Assembly (NCBI GenBank): GCA_030704615.1
Contig: JAKLZA010000091.1
Span: 1 to 25,000, forward strand
Direction of reading: 5' to 3'
Length of the DNA: 25,000 nucleotides
DNA from: Takakia lepidozioides
Taxonomy: Eukaryota; Plantae; Bryophyta
In this document: piece after piece, positions 801 to 24,857 of the stretch
Numbering within the stretch: the first letter of the stretch is position 1
How the letters are laid out: each line of letters opens with the position of its first letter
Made by a program: the position numbers and the translations under genes
Notes under the pieces: generated by a model
Told to the model about the DNA's origin: nothing
Database searches by the model: none
What the model saw: the letters and a program-made list of their open reading frames with translations, nothing else

Positions 801-1309
801 AAATTGAAATGATGGAGCCTACAGTGGGAGTAATGTTACTCCTTTGAGAGTTCGAGCAAGTTTGGCTTTTTGCCATTGTACAAGGAGGGGAGCATGAAGA
901 AATAAGGATGGGCTTGATACTCTTCCGTATAATTGGCCGAAGATATCAATGAAGTTTTTCTCATTCCAAGAGTATTATAATGGTTATAAGTGTTATAATG
1001 TTATGGCTTCCGTTGTCCAAAATTATTTTTTATTCCGTAAAAATAATATTTGGGGCGACCACAATAGCTATGGTCATAAACAATCAGTCCCGGAGGAGAT
1101 GTTTGGTGGAGTCAAGGCGTATTTCATCTACTTATGAGTGTTACAATTTGCAATAGCTCAGCATATTCTGATGTAAGTCAAGGTTTGGCCATCGGAATGT
1201 CTAATCTAGTTGTTGTGCTCTCTATGATAAAATGGTGCTGGAAGATGAGAAATCAAATTGATAATGACTGTATAGGTGTAGCTGTTGAAAGTCTTGCTAA
1301 AACTAATAG

Positions 1310-1376
1310 TTTCAATCATGAAAATGATTGTCTTGATAAAAATGATGGTCTTGATAAAGATAATGGCCTTGATTGA
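1310..1376 (-). repeat. Short ~18-19 bp tandem repeat (ATCAAGAC-core minisatellite of the Helitron family), reverse orientation
   Basis: gattgtcttgataaaaatgatggtcttgataaagataatggccttgat is the reverse complement of the atcaagacaatcattttt units at 2470-2515, 3618-3690 and 6445-6610. Confidence 0.7.
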
Positions 1377-1409: not shown

Positions 1410-2152
1410 CTATGCTTTTGCTCTATTTATCATCTTTAGTTTCCATTTTTTGTGGTGCTTGGACCAATAATTTAACTCCTATGAGTTGAAACTAAACTCC
1501 GTGTTTTTTATTACAAGAGTTCATCCAATACCTAATGTTACACTTGATGGCAACAAGATCCCTTGAGTTTATACAATCTCCCTTCATTAGATGTTCATTT
1601 TTATTTAACACCCCTATAGTGTTATATATGTCATTGTTAGCTGTGTTTTGACGTTTGACATTTGATGTCCAGCCAAAAATTTGGTGTTTGATTTATGGAC
1701 ATTTGTAGTAAAGCTCAGATTACTTCCACCGATCTATGTTAAATCTCCCCACGTCCTTTTCCAATACCCTATCCACTCACCAATCTTACTTGTGTACTCG
1801 AATTAAAAATGGTTATCTTTGAGTAGTATAGAAAATTCGATTGATGAAATTCTTCTATAAATGAGACACACTTATAGTTTCCAATTTTTCTGAGATATGG
1901 GAATTTGAAAATGCCTACAAAAATAAATATTTCTTTGTGCTGGACAACGGAGTATTCCATAAAGTACTATGGAAGTTAGAACTATAAGATAATTGTCTGC
2001 ATGTGTTGCCGACATTTACAGCATGGTGCTCATTCAATGAGAGATTATCATATATTTCATAGGTTATATCATCATGTCTAATTTCTTGATTGTCTTTTTT
2101 TGTAATATATTTTTTTAATCATTTCTTTGTTGTCAATTTCTGACATTGACAT
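1410..2152 (-). pseudogene. Helitron-associated putative OB-fold ssDNA-binding protein, copy A (most diverged; frameshifts and stops)
   Basis: Manual translation: MSMSEIDNKEM.../MEYSVVQHKEIFIFVGIFKFPYLRKIGNY.../LLKDNHF*FEYTSKIGEWIGYWKRTWGDLT*IGGSNLSFTTNVHKSNTKF/TSNVKRQNTANNDIYNTIGVLNKNEHLMKGDCINSRDLVAIKCNIRYWMNSCNKKHGV*FQLIGVKLLVQAPQKMETKEMINRAKA*. It aligns at amino-acid level with copies B and C. The SSB function is inferred. Confidence 0.6.
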
Positions 2153-2158
2153 GTTTGT

Positions 2159-2449
2159 TTAAATAGGTAGTGCAATTAGAGGATTTCTCGCAATCAGTAG
2201 TATCAAAGCCTGAGTTTTTTCCTCGCCACTATTCAGTTTCCCGTCTGCCATTCTCTTCCTACAGTTCTTTGCAATATGACCAACTTTCTTGCAATAAAAA
2301 AATTTGGCCTTAAATTTCTTCTTTTTGTTTGTAGGAGAACTTGACGATCCTTTGATTGATAGACTACTGAGACTTGTATTACTAAACTTATTTGCTTCTG
2401 ACATAAACTTCTTCTTATTTGAGTTAATTATCTTTTTACCAACAAACAA
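2159..2449 (-). mobile_element. LTR-retrotransposon (Copia-like) Gag fragment with CCHC zinc knuckle
   Basis: The ORF contains KKKFKAK-F-FYCKKVGHIAKNCRKR, a CX2CX4HX4C knuckle with the first Cys mutated to Phe, preceded by a Lys/Ser-rich linker. Confidence 0.7.
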
Positions 2450-2469
2450 TGCAACACTCTTAGAGGTTG

Positions 2470-2939
2470 TGCCATGAAGACCATCATCTTTATCAAGACC
2501 ACTATTTTTATCAACTTATATCGAGATCTTTCCTTCCTAATTCTGCTATTAATATCCTATGAACCACGGTCCACCCCTTTTTGTAAAACTTGAATATAGT
2601 TTGGCAACAATCCACCATTTCTTACGGAAAACAATGAAATATGTGTTGTAATATGTATATAAGACCATGATAGACAATCAGACTGTAGTGAAATAATTTA
2701 TTGAACATTTATGATAGCTTAGGTAGTAAAGGCACCTAAACTGTAGTACTCATTTTTGGATGTTATATACAAAGTGTAGTCGCATAGTCACCTTGGATTA
2801 AGTTTAGATGGTTATGTGGTGTTGGGAGCACTACAACAGTGAGCAAAATGGGGCAACGGTGTTGTGAGGATGTGACATATTTTCTGGACGTTGTTATCAG
2901 AAGTCGCCACTAGTAGTGCGGAGCAACGCGAGGCCCTAG
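2470..2939 (+). mobile_element. Helitron derivative, 3' portion ending in hairpin + CTAG
   Basis: Begins with ATCAAGAC units. 2570-2670 is homologous to 4300-4380 (ccacccctttttgtaaaacttgaatatagttt; aaacaatgaaatat). Ends gtcgccactagtagtgcggagcaacgcgaggccCTAG|t, homologous to the minus-strand end at 4435. Confidence 0.6.
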
Positions 2940-2999
2940 TTCTAGTAACGACTGAAGGTCGGAGACTAGTTTTAGCGTAGAGCGGAAATAAGGTGTCAT

Positions 3000-3584
3000 A
3001 GCACCACGTCGTAAGCCACATCATCATCTTTATTTTTCTTAGACTGCCCAAAGTACCCGAAAAGAAAACCGCAAAATGCAACCTCCTGAAATGACGTACC
3101 TGTTGGAAGCCCTTCAGAGTAGACAAATCGTCAGTGTGAATCGAACAATTCTTCATCTCTCAAGCCCTCAGACAAAGTTTTCTTTAAATTGGAGGATATC
3201 TTATATATATGTGAGTACATGAATAAGGTTAATGACTTGACAGCTTATTAGCAGAGGGCTTGCATAGATTTGGAGTAGATGGGTGGAGACAATTTAAATT
3301 TCACAAAAAAAGTTCAAAAGTCTAAAATAAAAAATTCCGATCCGACTGTTTCGACTTCAAACAAATGGCACAACATCACTGACAGTGACCTTTACAATAC
3401 CATTGAAATTATCAACAAAAAAGGCGAAAAGGTAAGTGAGAGATTTACAAGATATTGGCGAAATGTTTGAGGGAAAAAACACAACATTTCTTTCCAGATC
3501 ATAGGAGTCAAATTGTTGGCCAAAGCTCCTTTACACGTAGAAAATACGGATTATGTTTTAACCGTAGTTTGGATAAATTTTTAA
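3000..3584 (+). pseudogene. Helitron-associated putative OB-fold ssDNA-binding protein, copy B
   Basis: HVVSHIIIFIFLRLPKVP.../DKVFFKLEDILYICEYMNKVNDLTAY*QRACIDLE*MGGDNLNFTKKVQKSKIKNSDPTVSTSNKWHNITDSDLYNTIEIINKKGEKVSE[deletion]RYWRNV*GKKHNISFQIIGVKLLAKAPLHVENTDYVLTVV. Includes track ORF 3279..3470 read through its stop. Confidence 0.6.
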
Positions 3585-3758
3585 ACAAACTGTGTAAAAT
3601 ATTGAAAATAAATATCAATATCAAGATAATTATTTTTAATCATGATGATCATTTTCTGTGAAGATAATTATCTTTTATCAAGACAATAAAATTAAATAAT
3701 GAGCGACCGGAAAGATATAAACAACCGACTTCCGATCCAAACGAAACAAATGCTAACC

Positions 3759-4161
3759 CGCATCCTGCGAGTTCGAACGTAATATTAATTGGAAGCACAT
3801 AAAGTCCTCCACAAAGTCTTCACGGCTTCATTACAGATAGATTAATCCTAAGAGGTCATTATGCAATGATCTTATGGCCTTTTTAGGATACTCTGCAATT
3901 ACACCATCATCCGGTGGTTTCCTAGAGTAGTGCTTAAGTCTTCATAGGTGCTCCCTCCTTAGGTCTAGAGCAGATTTGGTCTTCAAACCTCTCTGAGGGG
4001 TCATGGTCGCTCATTCACTGTCAACGGTGTGTGTGCCTTATGGTGTAATCGGGGTTTTAATTTTTTTCCCACAATATTTATAAATAAAATTAATCAGGGC
4101 CTCTGTCCCCTGTTCACTTAAATAAAAAAAAAAAACTAAACTAAACTAAACTAAACTAAAT
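3759..4161 (+). mobile_element. 5'-truncated non-LTR retroelement (LINE 3' end or SINE-like) insertion
   Basis: Absent from the paired arm. Ends with a small hairpin cagggcctctgtcccctg, a poly(A) run and (CTAAA)5. Flanked by duplicated taacc (3754-3758 and 4162-4166). Confidence 0.7.
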
Positions 4162-4434
4162 TAACCGAAGGGAAAAATACAGAAAAGAGGGTTCAACTCT
4201 CCCTCACTTCTTGGGCATAGATAGAGGTAGTTGCATCAAACAATGAAATACGGAGACGTGACATTGTAGCTTCATCAACACTGTCATTCTTTTTCCAAAA
4301 AACAATGAAATATAGGATGTGTGTATGTAACACCATGGGGATGACCCACCTTTTTTTGTGAAAATTGAACATAGTTTTCAGAATTCGTCGCTAGTAGTAG
4401 TACTATTAAACCATCCACAATGTGCATAACCTCA

Positions 4435-5211
4435 CTAGGGGTTCGTGTTGCGCCACACTACTAACGACGAATTTTGAGAACTACGTTCAATGTTCACAAA
4501 AGGGGCGGGGTCATCCGCATGGTGTTATATACACACATCTCGTGTTTCATTGTTTCGCTCAAGAAGAATGGTGGAGTGTTGCCGAAGCTATCATGTCACG
4601 TCTCCGCATTTCAGTATTTGATGCATCTACCTCTATGTATGCCCAAGAAGTGAGGGGGAGTTGAACCCTCTTTTCTGTATTTTTCCCCTTGTTTAGTATT
4701 TTTTTCGTCTGGATCAGAAGTCAGTTGTTTATATCTTTTTCGTCGCTCATCATTTAGTCTCTCATCATTTAGTTTTATTGTCTTAATTAAAAATGATCGT
4801 CTTGATAAAATATAATTGTCTTCATTAAAAATAATCGTCTTGATATTGATATTTGTTTTCGATGTTTTACACTTTGTTCAAAGATTTATCAAACTATGGT
4901 ATTAATATAATCCGTATTTTCTACGCGTAAAGGAGCTTTGGCCAACAGTTTGACCCCTATGATCTGGAAAGAAATGTCATGTTTCTTCGCTCGAGATTTT
5001 GCCAATATCTTATATTACACTTGATGGCTACAAAGTTTCACGCATTAACAGACAATCCACTAATTTTCTCTCCTTTTTCGTTGAGAATTTCAATGGTATT
5101 GTAAAGGTCAATATCAGTGATTTTGTGCCATTTGTTTGAAGTCGAAACAGACGGATCGGAATTTTTCATTTTGGACTTTTGAACATTTTTTGTGAAATTT
5201 AAACTGTCTCC
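4435..5211 (-). mobile_element. Non-autonomous, internally deleted Helitron copy C with intact 3' terminus
   Basis: The minus strand ends cgtcgttagtagtgtggcgcaacacgaaccCTAG|t (hairpin gtgt-ggcgca-acac, CTAG at 4438-4435, followed by T). Same module order as copy B. Confidence 0.7.
4889..5211 (-). pseudogene. Helitron-associated putative OB-fold ssDNA-binding protein, copy C (C-terminal half)
   Basis: GDSLNFTKNVQKSKMKNSDPSVSTSNKWHKITDIDLYNTIEILNEKGEKISGLSVNA*NFVAIKCNIRYWQNL/AKKHDISFQIIGVKLLAKAPLRVENTDYINTIV*. Confidence 0.6.
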
Positions 5212-6444
5212 ATGTCTTCACAAAACTGTACGAAGGGGACAATGAGATGTCAGCTTTATATTGCATACCACTGGCCATGGAATATCAACCCTTAAAATTG
5301 GTTGTGGGTGTACTCTCCTCATGGTGGTTTGGTCGAAGAACAGATGAAACAAACTAGCACAGTTGTGTGTACTTCTTAGTGGTTTTGATATATTTTCGGC
5401 CCAGGATGACTACCTGATCAATGTTTCTATAGAGGATTGCTAGTAGGTATGTTCAATTTCCTGCCACACATCCAACTCGTACCACCCTCCTACAAATGTT
5501 CTTGAATGCCATCATATATACCTCTCTTTTAGACGAAAACTTGGTTTGTTGAAGGGTGGTCGGATGTTAACTATTTTGTTTTCCCAGTCCAATTAATTCA
5601 TATTTATTATTTTGGATCGCACAAGGGGAACAAAAATTAGATACTTAAATTGTTATTCATCACGAAATCTCAAGCTATATCCAGAGAATTATAATAACTC
5701 CTCATTGGGATTTGGTTTATTCCCTATTCATGACCGCATGCCCACATACCTCAATCATGAGGTAGACATTAAATTAAACATTGAACCATCATGACCAAAT
5801 AGAGAACAACCACATTATTTCACATGTCTTGGCTTTCACTCAATTATTTCCCATTGTCCTTTTTTCACTTTCTCACTTCATCATCATTTTTTTTTTTTTT
5901 TTCTAGAGCAGCTCTTTTCTTTTCTTTTCTTTTTCTAGACGGTACACTCCCGTCCATCGTTCCAGATTCCTTGAGGTGGTTCATTGTTCATCTTTGTGCA
6001 CCATTCAATTTCCATCCGTTTTAGCCAACCATGTAACATTGGTCATAGAAATATTTCCTTAAATGTTCATAAAATCCTAAATATGGATATGTCAAATTTG
6101 TCAATTGTTTCGAAATACGAATATCTAATCAATAAAAGAACTAACTACTATACTTTTAGCTTAAATTAACCCAATTAATAATAAAAGTTTCAATTAAACA
6201 TTTAACATTGGACATGAGAGATATAACCAGGACAGGGCACTAAACTAAAATTAGAAAGCAGCTGTTATACAAATCCATGGGCTTCAGTTCAAAACTTGTT
6301 ATAGGATGTTTGTGAGTTATTTGCATGATATGTTCTTTCTGGAATGTCTCTTTTGTAAAATAACATTGTAGAGAAGTGCAGCGTAGTTTGATAAATCATT
6401 GAACAAACTGTGTACAACATTGAAAATAAATATCAATATCAAAA

Positions 6445-6610
6445 CCATTTATCAAGACAATTATTTTTTATCAAGACAATTATTTTCATCAAGAAGATCA
6501 TCTTTTATCAAGATAATTATCTTTTATCAAGACAATCATTTTATATCAAGACAATTAATTTTTGTTAAGACAATCATTTTATATCAAAATAATGATTTTT
6601 ATCTCAACAA
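6445..6610 (+). repeat. Minisatellite, about 8 copies of a ~19-bp unit (ttatcaagacaattatttt)
   Basis: Directly visible tandem atcaagacaattatttttt / atcaagataattatctttt / atcaagacaatcattttat units. Confidence 0.85.
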
Positions 6611-6711
6611 TTATAGTTATCAATTCTATCAAAATTGCCAATGTACACATAAATACCATTATTTATTTGTAAGAAATAAAAACTTACATATATGTATAAC
6701 TTTAACTTAAT

Positions 6712-9700
6712 ATGGAAAAATAAATTGCTAATGGTAAGAGACAGAGAAAGTATGCTTTAAACAAAGAGAAACTAATATAGATTTAAACATCCATTTCAAA
6801 CCACGGAAATACAATCTCAATCAACTCCTAATCCAGACGAAACAAATGCTAAACGAAGGGAAAACTGCAACATCTACAACAAATCACGGAAATAAAATCT
6901 CAACTAACTTTCGATCCACACGAAATAAATGCTAAACAAAGGAAAAAAATACAGACTAGAAAATCCACAACAAACCACAAATCCAAATGAAACAAATGCT
7001 AAACGAAGGGACAAATATGCATTCCAAAAAACCAATATCCATTGATCAAAGATCAAATATGTGTTACACAAATCCCAACTTCATTACAGACAAAAATAAC
7101 AAAAAAAAACAACTGAAAAGAAACAAAAGCTAATGTATTGCAGTCCTGCAAAAGAACCAAAGAATAATCTACTCCCACCAGAAATATGCTAGGTTTTATT
7201 TATCTAATTTTAACGAATACATTAGCAATGCGACTTTCAATAACATATATTGTTGTGTTTGCCGCAAAGATAGAGCAACCTCTAATGGAGAATCGATGAA
7301 TTACGAAGGCGAAATCTTAAAACACATGAAAAAGTGGCTAAGTCTACAAGTAGAAAATCACTTAAAAGAATATATTATCCTAGAACACGTTCCGGAAGAA
7401 TTGATAAAAGACACAATTTTTTTTTTAAAAATAAAAAAATATTAAAAAAAATCAATTGGATGAATTAAATGGGTTGTTACTGAACAAACGAGTAATATCA
7501 AATATTGCACGTACCATCTTCATTTGTAAAGACTGTAGTTCCAGCTTGAAAAAAAACAGAATGCCAAAGTTTGCACTAGCTAATGGTTTGTGGATCGGAA
7601 AAGTTCACAACATTTTGCCAAAGATAACCATGGCTGAAGAAGCATTAATAGCCAGATATCAATGTCGTGTTATGTTGTTGAAATTACGATATATAAATAA
7701 AGGTGGAAAGGGACAACAAGCATTAAGATGAATTTTAGTAAGTTTTGCTCAAAATCCAAGTCGTGCGATTGAAGTGCTGAACAAATTGTCACCACCGTGT
7801 GAATTTATCTGATATTGTTGTTGTTCACTTCGTCGGTACTTCACATTCACATGTTGTAAAAATTTATAATTTGCTATACATACGTAGATTTGCAGTAACG
7901 CCACGGTTAACATGTTTGAAAAACAATCACACGTGATACAATGACGTTGAAATTGATACCAACATATAGGATGGTCTACCAGAGAATGATATTCCACCAT
8001 CAATCTTGAGATCGTTGTTTGAATCCACGGATATTGACTTTGCCAACGTTGAATATCGTACCAACATAATGGATTTGCACAATAAAAAAACGGCAAGTAA
8101 TAAAGACGACCCGACTATTCAATCCGTGATAGACACCTCCAGACTCATCGATTTTGACAGAATAGACATAAAACACGATGACCTAATCTCCAATGCCCTA
8201 CATGGATTGTAACTATAATAGAACATGTACTTGTTATACACGCATGAAACCGAAACGGTAAACGAATATGAATCCAAAACTGATCTCGTGCATGTTTCCA
8301 AAATTATTTTTGTTTGGAATTGACGTCACCGAAATAAAAAGTTGTCCAATTAAATTAACTTTGGAAGCCCACATTGAGTATTTGATGAGTCTAATTGACA
8401 TCCATCACGACTTTTTAAAACACCACTTATTTCCATTTTTCATGTTCAATTTGATACACGTCGACAGATATATCTGGACGCAAAAATGATAATGTCGAGA
8501 TCGTCATTTGAAAGTGAAACACAACTCCTTAATAATATCCATTCCGCAGACTTTAATGACATAATAGATTATGTTAAAATAATAAATAATAAACCGAAAA
8601 TACAAAAATTATTGCGACACTTGAAAGTAACAAATAAACACGTAATGGCATTTGGACGCAATCGTACAATATAAAGAAAAACATGATGCAACAGGTGGGA
8701 ACACGAAGTTTATTCTTCTCTTTGAATCCAGCATTCGTACATCATCCTCTTGTGTCCTTGCTAAGTGAAAACAACATTGATCTTCACATTTTTTTTGCCA
8801 ACAACCTCCCGGATCACAATGAAAGGGTTATCACAAACCCGAAATCTCAAGCTAAATTTGTACATATCATCGTGAATGCAGTTTTTAAAAATGTACTACG
8901 TGTCAAAGAGAATACCAAAACTACCACCACAAATACATGAGTACTTGGAAATATAAGCGCATATTACGGTTGTTACGTAACCGCGGAAAATGATTCACTT
9001 CAAATACACACATTACTGTGGCTAGAAAATGCCCCAAATCCAAATGACCTCGTTCAAAAACTAAAAGACGACGAAGAATTCAAACGAAAAATGTTGGCAT
9101 CTTTTGACAACAATATCATAGTATGCGGCTTGATCCAATTCAAACCAGAAATACCGGTTGACGACGATATTCCAACCACTATCATTGATTCCAACAATGA
9201 AGAAAACAATATAAAACCGAAATCCATCCATCCATGCGTTACTAGACCTCCTGATGTTCATAATAAAACATGATATATTGACTTTGTGCACGACGTTTCA
9301 AAACTGTTGAATGTATATAATCGTCACGTGCACAATCATGCATGCTACAAAACCAACGAAGATGTTTTCAAAAAGAATTGTAGATACAGATTACGCGCTG
9401 TCTTAGTTGAAGAAACACATTTTGACGACGAAACTGGACTACTGCATGTAAAACGAATTAATAGACAGTTGAATAACGCAAATTCATGGATTTTAGTTTC
9501 AGAAATATACAACCACGATTTGAAGTTCATCGGTGCTTCAGAAAAAGACGCAAAGGCTTTAATATACTATATTACGGATTTCCGTCCACGTCACACATAT
9601 ATTCGCTCTTGTAAATAGCCGTACAAAAGATTCAAACGACCTAAATGACAATCTACATTGCGAACATTCAGTTGAAAAAAACCGCAAACTATTAATTCGA

Positions 9701-9990
9701 TATTTAAACACAATCGGATCTCAACAAGAGATTATGGCGATAAGGGTAGTTAGTTACATATAATGAAATATCTAGATCTTTTGACATATCACCAATTTGC
9801 ACATCTGCTGCAGTATAGTTTATCGGCATGGATTCGTGAATAAGAACAATCTTGATCGAACACAGATGAATTTGAACAGCATAGATGACAATAACAATAA
9901 CGAAAACACATTCGAAACGTTCAAAGTCGTGAAAGAAATGTATGTGAAAGATATATATGAAAGATACTTTATTACTATATGTCAAAACTT
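6712..9990 (+). pseudogene. Helitron RepHel pseudogene, N-terminal part (DUF6570-like + Helitron_like_N + HUH Rep motifs)
   Basis: YCCVCR (~7250); ICKDCSSSLKKNRMPKFALANGLWIG...EEALIAR...QQALR; LPENDIP; MFPKLFLFG...FPFFMFNL; LFFSLNPAFVHHPL (motif 1); VLGNISAYYGCYVTAENDSLQIHTLLWLENAPNP (8941-9042, HUH motif 2, first His mutated); RHVHNHACYK...CRY; NHDLKFI...ALIYYITD (motif 3 tyrosines, ~9560); LNTIGSQQEI. Many stops and frameshifts. The start is uncertain. Confidence 0.9.
6830..7020 (+). repeat. Three dispersed ~35-bp direct repeats encoding (N/D)PxExNAKRRE
   Basis: atccagacgaaacaaatgctaaacgaaggga (~6831), atccacacgaaataaatgctaaacaaaggaa (~6914), atccaaatgaaacaaatgctaaacgaaggga (~6981). Confidence 0.8.
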
Positions 9991-11889
9991 TAAAGACTTT
10001 CAACGAGGTCTGTGACAAGTTGAATGATTTATATCAAAATAGTAATGTTATCAATAAAAAACTGAGAGTGTACAAGTTCATATTATTGATTATGTAATAT
10101 AATGGATGAGCTGGTAAGTACTACTCGCACAACCATTAATGATAAAGATGCGTCAGCAAATCTTCCTTGTTCAGTACCAAAATCATTTGTTGGCTTTGTA
10201 ATGGTCCAAACCCATAGTTTGGGCACATTAACTGTTATTACCAAATTATTAATAAATGCGACGTAAGGGTAAAGATCCTAGAGACTGTGTCTAATTCATC
10301 ATTATTTAGTGATAAGAGATTTCAAAATTCAGAAAACCCAAATTTAATGTATTTGCACCTAATTCTACATTCAGTAAACCATCTCAATTTGCCAAATTTC
10401 CCCAAATGATGTGGTATTTTCATTGTAAACTCTTCGGCCATCAAAAAGATAGCTGATGAATTTTTGTTTTATTTAATACAATAGTTCTGTTTCTCATGAA
10501 GCCAAATTGGTGGTGACTTCTCTATTGGCTGAAATACCAATGTTTGGTTTGTTGTTTCTGGTGCATCACAACATATGATGTCACATATAGAATATTTTTT
10601 AACACTCGTAGCATCTGAAACCCCACAAGAATCATAACAGCCGCCTCAAATCTAAATCCTTGTTTTGGCCATTTGCAAATGCACTCTAACACCGGATTTC
10701 AATCCCTGGGCCCTATAATTGTTGAGAATATGGAATCTCATCCATGAATAAGTCTAGTACCTTCATGGCTATGACAAAAATCGATACAATAAATAATTTA
10801 TTCAATCCCTTGAAGATAAATTTATAGTACTAGGTGCCACAGGTGCCTATCGATGCCTCAAACCTTAGGCCACGTATGGCAACCTCTTCATATTTATTGT
10901 TTTCATTATGAAGAATTTATTTGTATATGGTTGGACCCTTCAAATTATTTACATGCAATTCCTAAGGTTGTCCTTAGCGACTTTTCTAATTATTTATTGC
11001 TTAATTATTCTTACACTTCTTTTTGTAAAACATGTGACTCACACTAATTCTAAATATTCACGCTTGTGTGACTTATAAAATGTACACGTGACATTTAAGG
11101 TAGAAGTGTTCTTTGATGCTCATCATGTATGACCTCCAATATCAAAGGTTGTAATCTATCAACCTTGAGCCTTGCATGTTCACACCTATGTTGTTATATA
11201 GGTCCAAACATTGTATCAATAAGGGTATATAATAGGGTATTTAATGCCCTACATGACTTGTATCAATTTATCAAATACTAGTCAACTATTGATATTGGGA
11301 TGAGATTGGGACGTATTGAAAGTTAGAGAAAAATACTTATATTGGGTTCGTTATGTAAGGCAATACCATGCTAATATTAGGGTAATTCCATTGTAATATT
11401 AGGTTACTTGCATGTATATAGACCTAATTAGTATCAAGATTGTAGAAAAAATTAACTATATTGACCCAACTTGTACCAAAAAGTTGACAAACTGGTATTA
11501 TTGATATTGCCCCATGTATTTTTCAAAGTGATACCTACAACATTGGTTCATACATTCACAAAGTCCTTTTGACATGAAAGGTCATTTAATTTACCAAAAA
11601 TCTTATTTGATGTAACTAAGTCTTTACTACTTATGAATCTACTACGTGCATAACCGTTATTTTTTGGAGGTCAGTAGGATCTGAAGAAACCTACCCTTCT
11701 AGATTACATGGAAAATATGAATTCTGATATTTACTGTTCTTACTAAATTCAATTTTATTATTTTGAAGGAAGTTGATACATCTATCTAGGGAACAATAAT
11801 GCCGATTTCTAAAATTTACTATCTTTAAATTTACTAATTTATAGTTTACTATTCAAAGAATTGGGTCGGTACTTGCTATATTTACTATT

Positions 11890-11937: not shown

Positions 11938-12134
11938 TGTTTTCAACATTCCTGCAATGATGTTTCAAATATAGGGGAATTTAGGAATGTGTCACCTAAT
12001 TAATAGACCATAACACAATCATCTTTATGAGAGCATTGAAGCACAAAAAATCCATAGTAGCCCAAAATTTGGAGAATCCCAAGCATGTTGTCAACAGCTA
12101 ATTATCGTTAAAGTTGGCATTATCAAAATTGTGT

Positions 12135-15100
12135 TCAAAGTGTGCCCTCCATGAATGATGAATGATTTACGCCTTCCTCCAGAAAAAAAGTGATTGAAAC
12201 ATATACTTGTTTCATATAGAACAAATCAAAACCCTCCATATTGAAAATGTGAAGGATAGGCAATCCTTGGTACCCAAAAGACAACAAGGTCATCTCCCTC
12301 AATGTCAAATCCCCCATGCTTCCTTCTTCCACTTAAACTTGATACCTTGGTAAGACCTTCTTCATTAGTCCCTATAGCTTTTATTTTTTTACTGAACTGA
12401 TTCTCAATTAATACCTCATATTGTTTGAATCTTTCAAACTCCAGACTTGTGATTTGATAAGTAAACAACTGTAAATCTACAGGAATCATCTGGTGCCCTA
12501 TATGAATGATAAATGATTTACACCTTCAACTAGAAAAAAAAAAAACGATTCAAATATATATTTGTTTCATATAGAACAAAATCGAAATCCTCCATATTGA
12601 AAAGGTGGAGGATATGCAGCACTTGGCACCCAAAAGACAACAAGGTCATCTCTCTCAATTCCAAATACCCAATGCTTTCTTCTCTCACTTAACTTGATAC
12701 CTCGGTAAGACCTTCTTCATTAGTCCCTATAACTTTTATTTTTTTACTAAACTGATTCTCAATTAATACCTTATACTGTTTGAATCTTTCAAATTCCAGA
12801 CTTGTGATTTGATAAGTAAACAACTGTAAATCTACAGAAATCATCTGGTGCCGTACATAAATAATAAATGATTTACACCTTCCACTAGGAAAAAAATGAT
12901 TCAAATATATATTTGTTTCATATAGAACAAATCGAAACCTCCATATTGAAAAGATGGAGGATATGCAGCCCTTGGCATCCAAAAAACAACAAGGTCATCT
13001 CCCTCAATGCCAAATCCCCCATGTTTCCTTCTTCCACTTAAACTTGATACCCTGGTAAGACTTTTTCCATTAGTCCCTATGACATTTATTTTTAACTAAA
13101 CTGATTCTCAATTAGTACCTTATAGTGTTTGAATCTATCAAACTTCAGACTTGTGATTTGATAAGTAAACAACTGTAAATCTACAAAAATCATCTAGTGC
13201 CCTCTACAAATGATGAATAATATATAGCTTCCAACAGATTTTTTTTTTTTAAAGGGTTTTTTTTTTTTTCATATAAAACAAATCGAAACCCTCCATATTG
13301 AAAAAGTGAAGGACATACAACCTTTGGCTCCCAAAAGACAATAAGATCATCTCCCTCAATGCCGAATCCCCCATGCTTCCTTCTCCCACTTAACTTAATA
13401 CCTTGATAAGACATTCCCCATTAGTCCCTGTAACTTTTATTTTTTACTAAACTGATTCTCAATTAATACTTTATACTATTTGAATCTTTCAAACTCCAGA
13501 CTTGTGATTTGATAAGTAAACAATTATAAATCTACAGAAATCATCTGGTGCCCTCTATGAATGATTTATACCTTTCAACAGAAAAATAAAATAAAATAAA
13601 ATGAATAAATAAATTCAAATGTATGTTCTCATATAGAACAAATCGAAACCCTCCATATTTAAAAGGTGAAGGATATCCAACCATTGGCACCCAAAAGACA
13701 ACAAAGTCATCTCTCACTTTACTTGATACCTCGGTAAAACCTTCTTCATTAGTCCCTATAACTTTTATTTTTTTATTAAACTGATTCTCAATGAATATCT
13801 TATGCTATATGAATCTTTCAAACTCCAGACTTGTGATTTGATAAGTAATCAACTATAAATCTACAGAAATCATCTGATGCCCTACATGAATGATAAATGA
13901 TTTATACCTCCTACTAGAAAAAGAAATTGATTCAAATATATATTTATTTCATATAGAACAAATCGAAACCCTCCATATTAAAAATGTGAAAAATAAATAA
14001 AAATAAAAATAAAATGGAGGCTATGCAGCCCTTGGCACTCAAAAGATAACAATGTCATCTCTCACAATATCAAATCCCCCATGTTTTCTTCTTCCACTTA
14101 AACTTGATACCTTGGTAAGATTTTTTCCAGTAGTCCCTATGATATTTATTTTTTAACTAAACTGATTCTAAATTAGTTCCTTATAGGGTTTGAATCTCTC
14201 AAACTTCAGACTTGTGATTTGATAAGTAAACAACTGTAAATCTAGATAATCATCTAGTACCCTCCATGAATGATGAATGATTTACACCTTCCCACAAAAA
14301 CAATAAAATAAAATAAATGATTCAAATGTATGTTTGTTTCATATAGAACAAATCGAAACCCTCTATATTGAAAATGTAAAGGATCTTCAACCCTTGGCAC
14401 CCAAAAGAAAACAAGGCCATCTCTCTCAATGCCAAATCCTCAATGCTTCTTTCTCCCACTTAACTTTATACCTTGGTAAGACCTTTTCCATTAGTCTCTA
14501 TAACTTTTATTTTCTTACTAAACTGATTCTCAATTAATACCTTATACTGTTTGAATCTTTAAAACTCCAGACTTGAGATTTGAAAAGTAAACTACTGTAA
14601 ATCTACAGAAATCAAGGTGCGCCCTCCATGAATGATGAATAATTTACACATTTTCAACAGAAAAAAATAAAATGATTCAAATGTATACATGTTTCATATA
14701 GAACAAATCGAAACCCTCCATATTTAAAAGGTGAAAGATATGCAACCATTGGCACCCAAAAGACAAGAAGGTCATCTCCCTCAATGCCAAATCCCCCATG
14801 TTTCCTTCTCCCACTTAACTTTGATACTTTGGTAAGACCTTCTCCATTAATCCTATGACTTTTGTTTTTTTTATTAAATTGATTCTCAATTAGTACCTTA
14901 TACTGTTTGAATCTTTCAAACTCGAGAATTATGATTTGATAAGTAAACAACTGAAAAATCTAGAGAAATCATCTAGTGCCCTCCATGAATGATGAATGAT
15001 TTACATCTTCCAACAAAAAACAATATATTCAAATGTATATTTATTTCATATAAAACAAATTGAAACCCTGCATATTGAAAAGATGAAGTATATGCAACCC

Positions 15101-18100
15101 AAAAAACAACAATGTTATCTCCCTCAATGCCAAATCCCCCATGCTTTCTTCTCCCACTTAACTTGATACCTTGGTAAGACCTTCTCCATTAGTCCCTATA
15201 ACTGAACTAATTTTTAATTAATACCTTATATTGTTTGAATCTTTCAAACTTCAGACTTGTGATTTGATAAATATAAAAAAAATCATCTGGTGCCCTCCAT
15301 GAATGATGAATGATTTACACATTTTCAACAGAAAAAAAAAAAATGATTCAAATGTAAACATGTTTCATAAAGAACAATTTGAAATTCTCCATATTGAGAA
15401 GGTGGAAGATATGCAACCGTTGCATGTCACCCAAAAGACAACAAGGTCATCTCTCTCAATATCAAATCCCTTATGCTTCCCTCTTCCACATAACTTGATA
15501 CCTTGGTAAGACCTTCTCTATTGGTCCCTATAACTTTTATTTTCTTACTAAACTGATACTCAAATAATACCTTATACTGTTTGAATCTTTCAAACTCTAG
15601 ATTTGTGATTTGATAAGTAAACAACTGTAAATCTAGAGAAATCAAGGTGTGCCCTCCATGAATGATGAATAATTTACACATTTCCAACAAAAAAATAAAA
15701 ATTCAAATATATATTTGTTTCATATAAAACAAATCGAAACACTTCATATTGAAGAAGTAGAGGATATGCAGCCCTTGGCACTCAAAAGACAACAAGGTCA
15801 TCTCTCTCAATGCCAAATCCCCCATGTTTTCTTCTTCCACTTAAACTTGATACCTTGGTAAGATTTTTTCCAGTAGTCCCTATGACATTATTTTTTAACT
15901 AAACTGATTCTAAATTAGTTCCTTATAGGGTTTGAATCTCTCAAACTTCAGACTTGTGATTTGATAAGTAAACAACTGTAAATCTAGATAATCATCTAGT
16001 ACCCTCCATGAATAATGAATGATTTACACATTCCCACGGAAAAAAAAAATGATTCAAATGTATGTTTGTTTCATATAGAACAAATCGAAACCCTCCATAT
16101 TGAAAAATTGAGTGATATAAAACCCTTGGCACCCAAAAGACAACAAGGTCATCTCCCTCATTGCCAAATCTTCTATGTTTTCTTCTCCCACTTAACCTGA
16201 TACCTTGGCAAGACCTTATCTATTAGTCGATATAATTTTTTTTCTTCTTACTAAACAGATTCTCAATTAATACCTTATACTGTTTGAATCTTTAAAACTC
16301 CAGACTTGTGATTTGATAAATAAACAACTGTAAATCTAGAGAAATCATCTAGTACCATCCATGAATGATAAATGATTATACCTTCAAACAGCAAAAATAA
16401 TTATTCAAATGTATATTTGTGTCATATAGAATAAATCGAAACCTCCATATTGAAAAGGTGAAGGATATGCAACCCTTGGTACCCAAAAGACAACAAAGTC
16501 ATCTCCCTGAAAGCCAAATACCTCATGCTTCCTTCTCTCATTTAACTTGATACCTTGATAAGACCTTCTCCATTAGTTCCTATAACTTTTATTTTCTTAC
16601 TGAACTGATTCTCAATAAGTATATTAAACTGTTTGAATATCTCAAACTCCAAATTTGTGATTTGATAAGTAAACAATTGTAAATATAGAGAAATCATCTA
16701 GTACCCTCCATGAAAGATGAATGTTTTACACCTTCAATCAGAAAAAATATATATATATATATTCAAATGTATATCTGTTTCATATCGAACAAATCGAAAT
16801 CCTCCATATTGAAAATGTGAAGGATCTGCATCCCTTGACACCCAAAAGACAACAAGGTCATCTTCCTCAATGCCAAATCCCCAATGTTTCCTTCTCCCAC
16901 TTAACTTGATACGTTGGTAAGATTTTTTCCATTAGTCTCTATAACTATTATTTTCTTACTAAACTGATTCTCAATTAATACCTTATACTGTTTGAATCTT
17001 TAAAACTCGAGACTTTTGATTTGATAAGTAAACAACTGTAAATATACAGATATAATCTAATGCCTCTATGAATGATGAATAATTTACACATTTTCAACTG
17101 AAGAAAAAATATAATTCAAATATCTATTTGTTTCATATAACACAAATCGAAACCCTCCATATTGAAGAAGTGAAGGAGATGGAGCCCTTGCCACCCAAAA
17201 GACAACAATGTCATCTCCCCCAATGCCAAATCCCCCATGTTTCTTTCTTCTACTTAAACTTGATACACTGGTAAGATTTTTTCCATTAATCCCTACGACA
17301 TTTATTTTTTAATTAAATTGATTCTCAATTAGTACCTTATAGTGTTTGAATCTCTCAAACTTCATACTTGTGATTTGATAATTAAACAACTGTAAATCTA
17401 GAGAAATCATCTAGTACCCTTCATGAATAATGAATGACTTACACCTCCCAACACAAAAAAATAAAAATAAAATAAAATCAAATGTATATTTCTTTTATCT
17501 AGAACAAATCGAAACCCTCCATATTGAAAAGGTGAAGGATATGCAATCTTGGCACCCAAAAGACAACAAGGTCATCTCCCTCAATGCCAAAATCCCCCAG
17601 GCTTCATTCTTCTACTTAAATCCTATACCCTACTAAGACTTTTCCTATTAGTTCCTATGACATTTATTTTTAAACTGAACTGATTCTAATATTTTAAATT
17701 TCAGATTTGTGATTTGATAAGTAAACAACTGTAAATCTAGAGAAATCATCTAGTACCGTCCATAAATGATGAATGATTTACACCTTCCAACAGAAAAAAA
17801 ATAAAATAAAATGATTCAAATGTATATTTGTTGCTTATAGAACAAATCGAAACCCTCCATATTGAAAAGGTGAAGGATATGCAACCATTGGCACCCAAAA
17901 GACAACAATGTCATCTTCCTCAATACCAAATCCCCCATGCTTCTTTGTCCCACTTAACTTGATACCTTGGCAAGACCTTCTCCATTAGTCCGTATAACTT
18001 TTATTTTCTTACCGAACTGATTTTCAATTAATACCTTATATTGTTTGAATCTTTCAAATTCAACTTGTGATTTGATAAGTAAACAACTGTAAATCTATAG

Positions 18101-18498
18101 AAATCAAGGTGTACCCTCCATGAATAATGAATAATTTCCACCTTCCAACAAAAAAATAAAAATCAAAAAATAATTTTTAAATGTATGTTTATTTGATATA
18201 GAACAAATCGAAAACCTTCATATTGAAAAGGTGGAGGATATGCAACCCTTGGCATCCAAAAGACAACAATGTCATTTCTCTCAATGCCAAATCCCCCATG
18301 CCTCTTTCTTCTACTTATACTTGATACCCTAGTAAGACATTTTCTATTAGTCCCTATGACATTTTCTTTTTAAGTAAATTAGTACCCTATAATGTTTGAA
18401 TATCTCAAACTCCAGACTTATGATCTGATATATAAACAACTAAAAATCTAGATAAACCATCTAGTACCCTCCATGAATGATGAATGTTTTATACCTTC

Positions 18499-18535
<37 letters not shown>

Positions 18536-18869
18536 ATGTATATTTGTTGCATATAGAACAAATTGAAACCCTCCATATTAAAAATGTGAAGGATCTGCAA
18601 CCCTTGGCACCCAAAAGACAACAAGGTCATCTTCCTCAATGCCAAATCCCCTATGCTTCCTTCTTTTACTTAAACTTGATACCCTGGTAAGATTTTTCCA
18701 TTAGTCCCTATGACATTTTTTTTTAACTAAAATGATTCTCAATTAATACCTTATACTGTTTGAATATTTCTAACTCCAGACTTATGATTTGATAAGTAAA
18801 CAACTTTAAATCTAGAGAAATCATCTAGTACCCTCCATGAATGATGAATAATTTACACCTTCCACCAGG

Positions 18870-18901
<32 letters not shown>

Positions 18902-21900
18902 AATGAATATTTGTTTCATATAGAACAAATTGAAACCCTCCATATTAAAAATGTGAAGGATCTGCAACCCTTGGCACCCAAAAGACAACAAGGTCATCTT
19001 CCTCAATGCCAAATCCCCTATGCTTCCTTCTTTTACTTAAACTTGATACCCTGGTAAGATTTTTTCCATTAGTCCCTATGACATTTTTTTTTAACTAAAA
19101 TGATTCTCAATTAATACCTTATACTGTTTGAATATTTCTAACTCCAGACTTATGATTTGATAAGTAAACAACTTTAAATCTAGAGAAATCATCTAGTACC
19201 CTCCATGAATGATGAATAATTTACACCTTCCACCAGAAAAAAAAAAGAAAAAAAAAAAGAAGAAGATTCAAATGAATATTTGTTTCATATAGAACAAATC
19301 GAAAATCTCCATATTGAAAAAAGGAAGGATATGCAACCCTTGGGACCCAAAAGTCAACAAGGTCATCTCTCTCAATGCCAAATCCCCCATGCTTCTTTCT
19401 TCCACTTAAACTTGATACCCTGGTAAGACTTTTTCCTATTAGTCCCTATGACATTTATTTTTAACTAAACTGATTCTCAATTAATACCTTATAGGGTTTG
19501 AATCTCTCTAACTTCAGACTTGTGATTTGATATGTAAACAACTGTAAATCTAGAGAAATCATCTAGTACCTTCCATTAATGATGAATGATTACAACCTTC
19601 CAACTGAAAAAAAACAAAAAAAAAACAAATATATTTTTGTTTCATATAGAACAAATCGAAACCCTCTATATTGAAAAGGTGAAGGTTATGCAACCCTTAG
19701 CACCCAAAAGATAACAAAATCATCTACCTCAATGTCAAATCCCCTATGTTTTTTTTCTCCCACTTAGCTAGATACCTTGGGAAGGCCTTTTCCATTAGTC
19801 CCTATAACTTTTATTCTCTTACTGAACTGATTTTCAATTAATACTTTATAGTGTTTGAATCTTTCAAACTCCAGACTTATGATAAAAGTGATTCAAATGT
19901 AAACATGTTTCATATAGAACAGATCGAAATCTCTCCATATTGAAAAGGTGGAGGATATGCAACCTTTGGCACCCAAAAGACAATAAGGTCATCTCCCTCA
20001 ATGCCAAATCCCCCATGCTTCCTTTCCCCACGTAACTTGAAAGCTTGGTAAGACCTTCTCCATTAGTCCTTATAACTTTTATTTTCTTACAGAACTGATT
20101 TTCAAGTAATCCCTTATATTGTTTGAATCTTTCAAACTCCAGACTTGTTATTTGATAAGTAAACAACTATAAATCTAGAAAAATCATCTAGTACCATCAA
20201 TTACTAATGAATGATTTACACTTTTCAACAGAAAAAAGATGATTCAAATGTATATTTGTTTCATTTAGAACAAATCAAAACCCTCTATATTGAAAAACGG
20301 GAGGATATGCAACCCTTGGGACCCAAAAGACAACAAGGTCATCTCCCTCAATGTCAAATCCCACATGCTTTCTTCACCCACTTAACTTCATACCTTGGTA
20401 AGACATTTTCCATTAGTCCCTATAACTTTTAATTTCTTATTAAACTGATTCTCAATTAATACATTATACTGTTTGAATATTTAGAACTCCATACTTGTGA
20501 TTTAATAAGTAAACAACTGTAAATATAAAGAAATCATCAAGTGCCCTCCATGAATGATGAATAATTTTTCAAATTTCCAACAGAAATAATAATAACAATA
20601 ATAATAATAATTCAAATATATATTTGTTTCATATAGAACAAATCGAAAACCTTCATATTGAAGAACTTGAGGATATGGAGCCATTGGCACCTAAAAGACA
20701 ACAAGATCATCTCTCTCAATGCCAAATCCCACATGCTTCCTTCTTCTACTTAAACTTGATACCCTGGTAAGAAAAATTGAAAATATACTAATTAAACTCA
20801 GAATTTTTCAAACTTATTTTTTTTCCATTAAACTGATTCTTAATTAGTACATTATAGTGTTTGAATTTCTCAAACTTCATACTTGTGATTTGATAAGTAA
20901 ACAGTAAATCTACAGAAATTATCTAGTACCCTCCATGATAATGAATGATTTATACCTTCCAACAGAAAAAAATAAAAATAAAAATTCAAATGTATATCTG
21001 TTTAATATAAACCCTCCATATTCAAAATGTTAAGGATATGCAGCCTTTGGCACCCAAAAGACAACAAGGTCATCTCCCTCATGCCAAATCCTCCATGCTT
21101 CCTTGTTCCACTTATACTTGATACCTTGGTTACTTTTTCCATTAATCCTTATAACTTTTATTTTCTTATTAAACTGATTCTCAAGTTAATACTTAATACT
21201 GTTTGAATCTTTAAAACTCAAGACTTGTGATCTGATAAGTAAACAACTGTAAATATAATCATCTAGTACCCTCCATGAATGATGAATGTTTTATACCTTC
21301 CAACAGAAAAATAAAAATAAAAATAAAAATAATTCAAATGTATAATTGTCATATAGAACAAATCGAAACCCTTCATATTGAAAAGGTGAAGGATATGGAG
21401 CCCTTGGCACCCAAAAGACAACAAGGTCATCTCTCTCAATACCAAATTCTTCATGCTTCCTTCTTTTACTTAAACTTGATACCATGGTAAAAAAATTTCC
21501 ATTAGTCCCTATGACATTTTATTTTTAACTAAACTGATTCTCAATTAGTACCTTATACTGTTTGAATATTTCAAACTCCAGACTTATGATTTGATAAAAC
21601 TGTAAATCTAGAGAAATCATCTAGTACCCTTCATGAATGATGAATAATTTACACCTTCCACTTGAAAAAAAATGATTCAAATGAATATTTGTTTCATATA
21701 GAACAAATCGAAACCCTCCATATTGAAAATGTGAAGGATATACAACCATTGACACCCAAAAGACAACAAAGTCATCTTCCTCCTGCCAAATCCCCCATGC
21801 TTCCTTCTTCCACTTAAACTTGATACCTTGGTAAGACCTTCTCCATTAGTCTGTATAACTTTTATTTTTTTACTGAACGGATTATCTATTAATACCTTAA

Positions 21901-22544
21901 ACTGTTTCAATATTTTAAATTCCAGACTTGTGATTTGATAAGTAGACAACTGTAAAATCTAGAAAAATCATCTAGTGCCCTCCATGAATGATGAATGATT
22001 TACGCCTTCCACCAAAAAAATAGTGATTCAAACGTATACTTGTTTCATATAGAACAAATCGAAACCCTGCATATTGAAAAGTTGAAGGATAGGCAACCCT
22101 TAGCACCCTGGTAAGACTTTTTCCATTAGTTCCTCTGATTTTTATTTTTTAACTAAACTGATTCTCAATTAGTACCTTATAGTGTTTGAATCTCTCAAAC
22201 TTCAGACTTGTAATTTGATAAGTAAACTTTAAAGAACTGTAAATCTAGAGAAATCATTTAGTACTCTCCATGAATGATGAATAATTTACACCTTTCAACA
22301 GAAAAAATAAAAATAAAAATAAAAATCAAATGTATATCTGTTTCATATAGAACAAATCGAAACCCTCTATATTGAAAATGTAGAGGATATGCAACCCTTG
22401 GCACCCAAAAGACAACAAGGTCATCTCCCTCATGTCAAATCCCTCATGTTTCCTTGTTCCACTTAAACTTGATACCCTAGTAAGACTTTTTCCATTAGTC
22501 CTTATAACTTTTATTTTTTAACTAAACTAATTCTCAATTAGTAC
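12135..22544. repeat. Tandem satellite array, about 30 units of ~350 bp, partly derived from Ty1/Copia integrase
   Basis: The marker atagaacaaatcgaaaccctccatattg recurs about 30 times from ~12215 to ~22347. The minus strand of each unit reads SVGRCKSFII/LDDFSRFTVVYLSNHKSGV/FERFKQYKVLIENQFSKKIKVI(G/R)TNGEG, matching the Copia rve consensus S.GG.RYF..FIDDFSR.TWVY.LK.KSEVF..FK.FK..VENQ..KKIK..RTDNGGE. Confidence 0.95.
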
Positions 22545-22551
22545 GTACTAA

Positions 22552-22680
22552 TGTGGGTTCATCGAGGATGCAAAGGCACTGTTTGATAAGATGGCTGCAC
22601 AAGCATGGAATGTGATGATCGCAGGATATGCCCAGCAGGGTCACGGGATGGAGGCTTTGGATACCTATGAGCAAATGAGG
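22552..22680 (+). pseudogene. PLS-class pentatricopeptide repeat gene fragment
   Basis: CGFIEDAKALFDKMAAQAWNVMIAGYAQQGHGMEALDTYEQMR matches the plant PPR consensus KCG..EDA..LFD.M...(DVVS)WN.MIAGYAQHG...EAL..YEQM. Confidence 0.88.
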
Positions 22681-23066
22681 GTACCACCGACAGTTTGGAG
22701 GCTGTGATGGCTGCATATGTGTGGGGAAAAAGAAGCGAAGGGATAGAGTGTGGCCAGATTTCAGGCATAAGATTACTTATGATTCCCTGTGAATCAATAG
22801 CTACTAGCAACCTGCATGGGTAGATGGTCAACTAGAAGCTGCAGCAGCAGCAACACAATTGATAAATTCAGGCACTGCTAATGAAGGCACCTTCTTCAAC
22901 ACATTTCACCCTGTTTTTCCCTCTTATCAGAATCGGCCTTGAATTTTCATGTTGAATTCTGCAAGTTAGCTGGTTGAGTGAACCTTTGATAGTTTGGAGT
23001 GACTGACTGATATTGCCAATGTGACACAGGAAAGTATCCAGAAACAGATAACAGAGACAAGGAAAC

Positions 23067-23128
23067 CAGGAGTTGTGGAATGAATACTTTTCTGACCCCA
23101 ATCAATGGTGGGACAATCGAGGCAAAAG
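23067..23128 (+). pseudogene. OSB-type 'PDF' motif exon fragment, copy 1
   Basis: QELWNEYFSDPNQWWDNRGK followed by AG|GTAAAT donor-like site. Matches the first half of the PDF motif of plant organellar ssDNA-binding (OSB) proteins (W..FF..P.QWWDNR..K). Confidence 0.75.
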
Positions 23129-23640
23129 GTAAATGCCTGTTGGATTACAGAGAGTAGCAAATGCAATTGAGCATAAGAACTAGTGTGATAAGTTGAGTTG
23201 GGTGTTTCCTAGAACAATTCTAGGCTTTCATTGTCAGTTGCTAGCAACACGGAAAAGGTGAATGTATGATTTGTGCAGAGGCATGGATAGCTGAAGGAGC
23301 AGGGATAGAGTGTTGGTCCAGATTCATTTAAGAGGGTCAGATTTCAAGCTCCACATTACCTGTGATTCCCTGTGGATCAATAGCTACCAGAAACCTGCAT
23401 GGGTAGATGGTCAACTGGCAGCAGCGGCACAATTGATATAATCAGGCACTGCTAATGAAAGCATCTTCTTCAGCACATTTCACCATATTTTTCCCTCTTA
23501 TTAGAATCGGCCCTAACTTTCCATGTTGAATTCTGCAAGTTAGCTGGTTGAGTGAATCTAGTTTGGAGTGACTTTGACATGATACTGCTGATGTGACAAC
23601 AGGAAAGTATCCAGAAACAAGTAACAGAGACAAGGACAAG

Positions 23641-23697
23641 CTGTGGAATGAATAGTTTTCTGACCCCAGTCAATGGTGGGACAATCGAGGCAAGAAG
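23641..23697 (+). pseudogene. OSB-type 'PDF' motif exon fragment, copy 2
   Basis: LWNE*FSDPSQWWDNRGKK followed by AG|GTGAAT. Confidence 0.75.
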
Positions 23698-24080
23698 GTG
23701 AATGCTTGTTGGATTATAGAGAGTAGCAGATGCAATTGAGCATAGGAACTAGTGTGATAAGTTGAGTTGGGTGTTTCCTAGAACAAATCTAGGCTGTCAT
23801 CGTCAGCTGCTAGCAGCAAGACAATGATGTATGCTTGATTTGTGCAGAGGCATGGATAGCTGAAGGAGCAGGGATATAGTGTGGGTCCAGACTCAGGTGT
23901 TTCCGCCTTGGCAGGTTGCTCAGTGACCTTCCCTGGTAGCTTTGGAGTATAGTGAGTGTCTCACAATGCAATGTTGGTTGGTGCATCTTATGCATGAACT
24001 TGGAAAACAAACAAATGTCATTTTTTGGAGCTTTAGGCTGAACCTCTGTGTTGGGCTGCACTGTGCAGCCTGGCCTCTGC

Positions 24081-24299: not shown

Positions 24300-24857
24300 T
24301 ACTGACCACAAGCAACCTACGGTGAATTGTGGTATCCTCCACATTTATGTGGAATGTCCTACAACGTAGGCCGTAGTATATTTCACACCCGCTATGGTCT
24401 TCTCCACAATTATGTGGAATGACCTACAGTATAGGCAGTAAAATACTCCACACTCACACCAAGAGTTGCTCTAAAATACGCCACATGTTGCCCCGACAAA
24501 AATACACGTGGTGCCCATACCGTTGCCCAGATGTCGTCAAGCCATGGTGACAGGCTGTCGCATAATTTTCCAGTAGACGTGGACAAGTCCACACCCTTTG
24601 TACGTCTAGGATCCACGTGGTGGTGTTCGCCAAACCACACGTCGCCCGTGGAAAAAGCCATTCACCCCGTGAAAAAAGCCACCTGTGGATTCAGCCACCC
24701 GTGGACTTTTCCACAGGGCCACCCGAGAGCCAGGCCATCCACGGGGTGTCCGAAAGCACTAGTCGTTTCTTACACCCACGTCAGGTGTGGATTGCGGCCG
24801 ATTCCACAACAAAAAATGTGGAAAAAACCGTGGAAAAAACCGGTTTCTCTTCTAGTG
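24300..24857. repeat. CACTA-type subterminal repeat region and TIR
   Basis: Many CCACR/YGTGG(A) motifs in both orientations. A ~64-bp tandem pair (~24337 and ~24402) each contains the palindrome tccaca-wwta-tgtgga. gtggaaaaaacc occurs twice just before TAGTG. Confidence 0.75.

Follow-up and report, generated by a model that had tools for sequence, protein, structure and literature searches.

The 25,000 nucleotides at positions 1 to 25,000 of the forward strand of contig JAKLZA010000091.1 (assembly GCA_030704615.1), from the bryophyte Takakia lepidozioides, are referred to here as the window. The window contains three decayed copies of one gene, here called the accessory gene, together with remnants of the Helitron family that appears to have carried it, a family of the DUF6570 type known as HLE2 (Helentron/Helitron2). 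Our favored reading, held with a little more than even confidence, is that this integral HLE2 accessory gene encodes a likely non-RPA, single-domain protein that binds single-stranded DNA (ssDNA), probably of the phage T7 gp2.5 type.

A single gene in three decayed copies

The copies of the accessory gene are as follows.

1410..2152, minus strand: copy A, full length, with several frameshifts and three in-frame stops, identified with the family profile
3177..3584, plus strand: copy B, C-terminal two thirds, with three stops and a 12-codon gap
4889..5212, minus strand: copy C, C-terminal half, with one stop and one frameshift

A first-pass annotation made from the letters alone had described three decayed copies of one open reading frame (ORF). 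BLASTP and profile searches bear this out, with copy B recognized from 3177 onward rather than from ~3000. Only copy A is full length; copies B and C are 5'-decayed or truncated, and all copies observed are now dead. With stops read as X, copy B matches one piece of copy A at E 1e-16 (43% over 79 residues) and a second piece at E 1e-10 (42% over 45 residues). At the DNA level the identity is 62.7% for A-B, 61.7% for A-C and 87.8% for B-C. A family profile of 55 outside sequences, from which the 5 window rows had been taken out, recovered copy A at 1423-2070 (independent E-value, iE, 2e-21), copy B at 3177-3578 (iE 1e-14) and copy C at 4984-5202 (iE 2e-12, with a tail at 4892-4990 at 6e-4), and found no further match in the window below iE 1. 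The stretch upstream of copy B (3000-3176) goes unseen by this profile (best iE 0.49) and is at most faintly homologous.

Most of the amino acid blocks that the first pass listed as conserved are present in the sequence, namely L.D....EY..K, GG.NL.FT..V.KS, D.YNTI, VAIKCNIRYW and KKH..SFQ.IGVKLL..AP. Copy B lacks VAIKCNI owing to its 12-codon gap. The VV.H..IFIF block is borderline in copy B (its score of 39 was reached by 4 of 279 random pairs), and VV.H of copy A lies in a frame other than the one that the family uses there. The proposed N-terminal family motif G.fkfPyL turned out to be private to copy A; at this place the relatives read F(I/V)G.a.scW.G.kgNY. An intron, prompted by a TAG before GG common to copies A and B, was considered and rejected: the relatives have Trp at the TAG site and run colinearly, so that none is needed.

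Relatives outside the window are numerous and uniformly damaged. A full HMMER search of the window pieces against 1.84 billion representatives gave 20 proteins (E 2e-10 to 9e-4), all of 51-167 residues, and a later protein search with the family gave 21, every one a fragment (48-173 residues). A locus pattern built from 9 of the 20 proteins and copy A yielded 30 metagenome loci, 16 of them distinct after removal of near-identical ones. The family is an intronless gene of about 220 codons, and every copy observed is broken. No longer protein (245-2000 residues) was found among 7990 candidates, which is weak evidence. A word-based protein search with copy B gave no match, and PDB sequence searches with the family were blank or at chance level. 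Atlas look-ups of two relatives led to clusters mostly of Basidiomycota, at 0.93 and 0.82 and below the recognition threshold, and give no more than a lead.

Purifying selection acted on the gene, since the ratio of nonsynonymous to synonymous substitution (dN/dS) is mostly 0.2-0.5; the past selection on the protein that had been suspected at first pass is confirmed by these estimates. By the Nei-Gojobori method, with bootstrap intervals given for pN/pS, dN/dS is 0.39 over 58 codons for A-B (interval 0.38-0.98) and 0.37 over 83 codons for B-C (interval 0.18-0.90). The 15 pairs among six related loci range from 0.19 to 0.71, and the pN/pS interval lies below 1 in 14 of them. Two points count on the other side: protein-guided local alignment lowers the estimates, and A-C gives 2.1, a value that is uninformative at only 15 codons. 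Decay after element death raises them.

Linkage of the gene to RepHel and the order of the element

The metagenome loci place the gene beside the Rep/helicase protein (RepHel) of a Helitron. In 11 of the 16 distinct loci (L008 being counted on its own Pfam hits), the gene is followed on the same strand by RepHel-family sequence, and these include 10/10 of the loci whose downstream flank measures 2.4 kb or more; no opposite-strand RepHel match occurs among the 16. The nearest RepHel match is 0.2-1.3 kb away in nine loci and 2.2 and 5.0 kb away in two that keep only the 3' part. The five loci that lack downstream RepHel have flanks of 24-1802 bases, and one of these, L029, has helicase sequence upstream. 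The relatives are collinear at 65-88% DNA identity and their homology stops at a common motif. Against this evidence it must be said that the related loci are one element lineage, and the linkage is therefore inherited and does not amount to 11 independent events.

The RepHel of the relatives carries DUF6570 and PIF1 (DUF6570 in L008 at E 1.6e-21), with the PIF1 helicase behind Rep in L008 (E 6e-12) and L025 (E 5e-4). A Ulp1/Peptidase_C48 domain was also observed after the helicase, close to the 3' end of the element (L008:16148-16534, L018:8918-9106); its E-value in L008, 1e-4, is above the Pfam cut-off. The 3'-terminal motif of the window, at 2908-2938 and 4466-4436, matches the ends of L004, L017 and L018 at 23-25 of 31 positions (five shuffles gave at most 18), and a match of at least 20 bases is absent in 11 of the 16 loci. 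HLE2 elements characteristically have short terminal inverted repeats, a stem-loop and TT/TT insertion sites; the window ends read CTAG and have only weak hairpins (-3.3 and -3.9 kcal/mol). The order of the element is gene, repeat spacer, RepHel (DUF6570-Rep-PIF1, with the C48 domain downstream in relatives) and 3' terminus. The link of the gene to a Helitron Rep and terminus, as first proposed, is upheld, and we regard the gene, from its sequence context, as an integral accessory component of a Helitron family of the DUF6570 type (HLE2). The picture of a two-gene element of RepHel and an ssDNA-binding protein (SSB) stands as to the linkage and omitted the C48 domain.

Further copies of the 3'-terminal motif lie inside or beside elements at L004:11875-11905 (minus strand) and L020:12058-12088 (plus strand) and suggest nested non-autonomous insertions. 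In L020-L022 and L029/L030, helicase sequence passes straight into the gene's C-terminal half, and L020 also has an N-terminal half of the gene upstream of RepHel. Such junctions may reflect deletion across tandem or circle-derived copies.

Around the three copies, the window contains these parts of the element.

1299..1373, minus strand: 19-bp repeat spacer 3' of copy A, matching 6416-6580 and 4777-4826
2474..2940, plus strand: piece of a non-autonomous derivative, with 19-bp repeats, subterminal sequence and the 3'-terminal motif (2908-2938) ending CTAG
3585..3756, plus strand: 3' spacer of copy B, with 19-bp repeats and the CCGATCC..ACAAATGCTAA unit
4162..4400, plus strand: subterminal arm belonging to the B element, its terminal motif truncated, matching the C arm at 84%
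4434..4888, minus strand: spacer, subterminal arm and 3'-terminal motif of the C element (motif 4466-4436, ending CTAG)
6382..7014, plus strand: fourth, deleted gene copy, its last ~7 codons and spacer leading into RepHel (sequence match)
7134..10015, plus strand: decayed HLE2-type RepHel that ends before the helicase (DUF6570 E 1.5e-13, Helitron_like_N E 6e-4)

The RepHel at 7134-10015 is 62-69% identical to that of the relatives, with tblastx matches up to about 9850. The spacer ahead of it (from 6382) is the same as that found 3' of copies B and C, and 3563-3687 (the end of copy B and its spacer) matches 6382-6517 at 77%. This RepHel copy has lost all but the last codons of the gene. Read depth rises stepwise at about 6370-6400, and none of the contigs placed on 6250-7400 bridged gene and RepHel. 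The piece at 2474..2940 has blastn matches to 4434-4591 and to the spacers. Copies B and C are best read as parts of internally deleted derivatives, set tail to tail, that keep the family 3' terminus. In run X1, contigs connect 3748 with 4205 and 4364 with 2888, the joints that copies elsewhere would give if their order were gene, spacer, arm, terminus.

The B and C elements also form a 1.9-kb interrupted inverted repeat (3284-5212) with arms 80-90% complementary, which may be a source of hairpin RNA. The 2902-3218 bin has a contig depth of about 100x single copy, and loose contig ends are numerous at 2940 and at 4024-4070.

Another account of the copies would be that they stem from an endogenous giant virus or from a piece of a host gene, either located close to Helitron debris or transported as passive cargo. 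The nucleocytoplasmic large DNA virus (NCLDV)-like regions of the moss Physcomitrella patens hold 17 SSB copies (PMC4083422). None of the window copies directly adjoins RepHel, and a gag-like zinc knuckle neighbors copy A. This account nevertheless meets a fixed position and strand by RepHel across elements 65-88% identical, dN/dS well below 1, and a spacer and terminus shared within the window. The neighbors of the gene are RepHel, retroelement scraps and a satellite, with no viral core gene cluster in the window, and a scan of 18 window ORFs yielded no viral core gene; IMG/VR contigs, searched with one pattern, contained no relative. For the present state of the gene such an origin is largely refuted, and we consider it very improbable. 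The gene may still have been viral before its capture by the Helitron. The gp2.5-like SSB genes of virus type in the Physcomitrella genome would be a possible source, and these, compared by description only, lie in viral core gene clusters and not in Helitrons (PMC4889955, PMC4083422).

Affinity and possible role of the predicted protein

The first-pass annotation had likened the product to the SSBs of T7 gp2.5, Enc34 (DUF2815) and NCLDV (DUF2738) rather than to RPA70. The second half of that proposal agrees with the Pfam scans: an RPA or Ssb-like family was detected at E <= 1 in 0/22 and 0/62 members, although these are fragments and a very distant RPA link may have escaped the scans. Of the first half, a weak likeness to T7 gp2.5 survives, limited to the C-terminal three strands. 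In hhalign a joint profile of T7 and HTVC gp2.5 ranked first among 48 phage protein profiles, with 52-54 aligned columns and a score of 24-25 that 0/30 shuffles reached. The alignment, of 3-5% probability, sets the near-invariant Tyr of the family RYW on T7 Tyr158. The T4 gp32 profile scored 13.8 and the E. coli SSB profile 13.5, the latter within its own shuffles, and the known homologous pair of T7-only and DUF2815 reaches only 22.7 with equally shallow profiles. In addition, one of 62 members (P0009) matches phrog_112, which is gp2.5-like, at E 0.0018. In a reverse blind test, four profiles with T7-type sequences placed 2-4 family pieces in the top 30, where 0.12 were expected, and two T7-like pelagiphage SSBs are among the 5 tblastn matches at E 4-9. 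The profile comparisons thus appear to favor T7 gp2.5-type SSBs weakly over T4 gp32 and E. coli SSB.

A number of results weigh against a T7-type protein. The hhalign probability is just 3-5%, and one of 20 shuffled T4 gp32 templates scored 26.7. The HTVC set was picked via P0009 and hence is not independent, although P0009 itself had been taken out of the query profile. With T7 alone the score was 18.4, in a different register, and DUF2815 alone scored 15.1, a value reached by 4/30 shuffles and so within the controls. In Pfam scans of single members, DUF2815 or DUF2738 appeared at E <= 1 in 0/62. In a forward blind test over 5717 phage ORFs, no SSB was among the best 40, and the ranks of Javan-type SSBs stayed at chance level. 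In the reverse test, 1 family piece also entered the top 30 for the E. coli SSB profile. The members have no long acidic C-terminal tail and end 10-25 residues past the last strand. Two AlphaFold models are poor (predicted template modeling score, pTM, 0.37 and 0.35), and five structure searches gave no significant match and did not list gp2.5 or Enc34 ORF6. None of the weak PDB rows is of T7 type; they comprise SSBs of the bacterial type together with editosome and MCM proteins. Further nulls came from the C-terminal profile against 5 phage genome records (no match) and from single-sequence hhalign against Enc34 ORF6 and T7 gp2.5 (not significant).

These models and searches did not establish the single oligonucleotide/oligosaccharide-binding (OB) fold suggested at first pass. 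The first model has a 22-residue helix (H39-60, predicted local distance difference test, pLDDT, about 55) followed by strands, the last two at pLDDT 79-91; the strands preceding the helix were not modeled. Among the 46 PDB rows listed, all at E > 0.3, 23 are what we take to be OB-fold proteins.

Comparison with described systems sharpens both the likeness and its limits. A long helix directly after strand beta-2 is given as the hallmark of T7-type SSBs (PMC5686142). The family shares with T7 gp2.5 and Enc34 ORF6/DUF2815 a similar size and a long predicted helix before the last three strands (PMC5686142), and with T7 gp2.5 the weak in-register alignment of the C-terminal strands. The stacking aromatic of the type is Tyr158 in T7 and Trp150 in ORF6, and the Tyr of RYW is the candidate counterpart. 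Unlike these proteins, the family lacks the long acidic tail, has an extra N-terminal part, is encoded by a eukaryotic transposon and has no significant sequence or structure match to them. T7-like SSBs are described as virus-specific, without close cellular homologues (PMC4889955). On present evidence the accessory protein may resemble a T7-type SSB in its working and is not filed as a member.

Among Helitrons, HLE2 elements are reported to carry RPA or Ssb-like_OB genes, with RPA upstream of RepHel, to be marked by DUF6570, and to occur in mosses (Sphagnum magellanicum HelenSM92, Ceratodon and Physcomitrium) (PMC11417382). The RepHel of the window and its relatives is likewise DUF6570-marked and has a separate gene upstream. 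That gene differs from the RPA and Ssb-like_OB genes in lacking such a Pfam match and in being a single intronless gene of about 220 codons. The window element ends in CTAG, as in proto-Helentron, and its relatives have a C48 protease domain, unlike the described HLE2 elements. Plant HLE1 elements with RPA70-like genes also carry their own putative ssDNA-binding gene; there, RPA is Pfam-detectable and enriched downstream of RepHel, whereas the window gene lies upstream, in HLE2, and is not RPA-like by Pfam (PMC11417382).

This shared position makes an OB-fold of another lineage worth weighing, such as a diverged RPA, an archaeal Ssb-like or a bacterial-type SSB, which would do the same job in an integral accessory gene and not be of virus type. 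RPA stands at the same place in HLE2, Ssb-like_OB (PF21473) is recorded there (PMC11417382), and the weak Foldseek rows are bacterial or mitochondrial SSBs and other cellular OB-folds. The empty Pfam scans for RPA and Ssb-like families, the E. coli SSB score within its own shuffles, and the long predicted helix ahead of the last three strands, as in T7-type SSBs (PMC5686142), speak against it, and we find it unlikely. Equally improbable to us is an integral accessory gene of different fold or job, for example a silencing antagonist or RepHel partner, whose SSB likeness would be a chance match of a long beta-hairpin; here the weak signals agree with one another (phrog_112, the two pelagiphage SSBs at tblastn E 4-9 and the first hhalign rank of 48). 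That the accessory protein was an SSB of some kind we consider quite likely, and that it was one of T7 type only somewhat better than an even bet.

Rolling-circle transposition exposes single-stranded DNA. Helitrons are known to carry SSB genes in some cases (PMC6213432, PMC11417382). In the mechanism that we propose, RepHel would nick and peel off one DNA strand, and the accessory protein would coat the peeled strand and the circular intermediate, its conserved RYW aromatics stacking on bases. Coating would guard the strand against nucleases and re-annealing, and the protein would perhaps help strand annealing at insertion.

The accessory gene of plant HLE2 Helitrons is real and apparently undescribed. 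Known before were the RPA and Ssb-like_OB genes of HLE2 and the virus-type SSB genes in giant-virus insertions of moss (PMC4083422). None of the papers listed in literature searches joined Helitrons with gp2.5, Enc34, DUF2815 or DUF2738, with subscription journals, Repbase reports and bioRxiv supplements outside the search. The SSB genes of Helitrons have so far been viewed as captures of host RPA. The existence of a conserved gene that is not RPA, keeps a fixed position and escapes surveys based on Pfam shows that the gene content of HLE2 has been partly overlooked. If of T7 type, it would tie Helitrons to viral replication modules, bear on their proposed origin from prokaryotic viruses or plasmids (PMC6213432), and provide a testable helper for rolling-circle transposition. 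More tentatively, and with slightly less than even confidence, land-plant HLE2 Helitrons may possess their own SSB of T7/giant-virus type; this could be an ancient virus-derived replication module of one Helitron branch, either retained in different kingdoms or passed between fungi and plants.

Other sequences in the window

Short, very high-copy repeats at 2941-3001 and about 4012-4070 are probably small insertions. Retroelement scraps include the gag-like zinc knuckle beside copy A (zf-CCHC, E 0.0017), which lies at 2159-2515 on the minus strand, and a Pol beta-barrel piece at 10530-10620 (plus strand, E 0.012). The minus strand of 1-1300 may hold a Copia reverse transcriptase; this is a reading by eye that Pfam, being blank there, did not confirm. 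A tandem array occupies 12100-22530, with about 28 copies of units of about 355 bp that are 60-98% alike, and an extra unit starts at 24824 (to 25000). Directly after this satellite, at 22552-22704, is a pentatricopeptide repeat (PPR) fragment (PF01535, E 1e-9). This fragment above all, along with short near-identical pieces in a run labeled plant metagenome, points to a plant as host; the appearance of the PPR and of the OSB-like pieces described next suggests a moss or similar early land plant. A duplication of about 570 bp (89-90%) follows at 22844-23900. Each of its copies reads FSDP.QWWDNR, within a 26-residue piece that has no Pfam match; this presumably resembles the PDF motif found in OSB proteins, which bind ssDNA in plant organelles.

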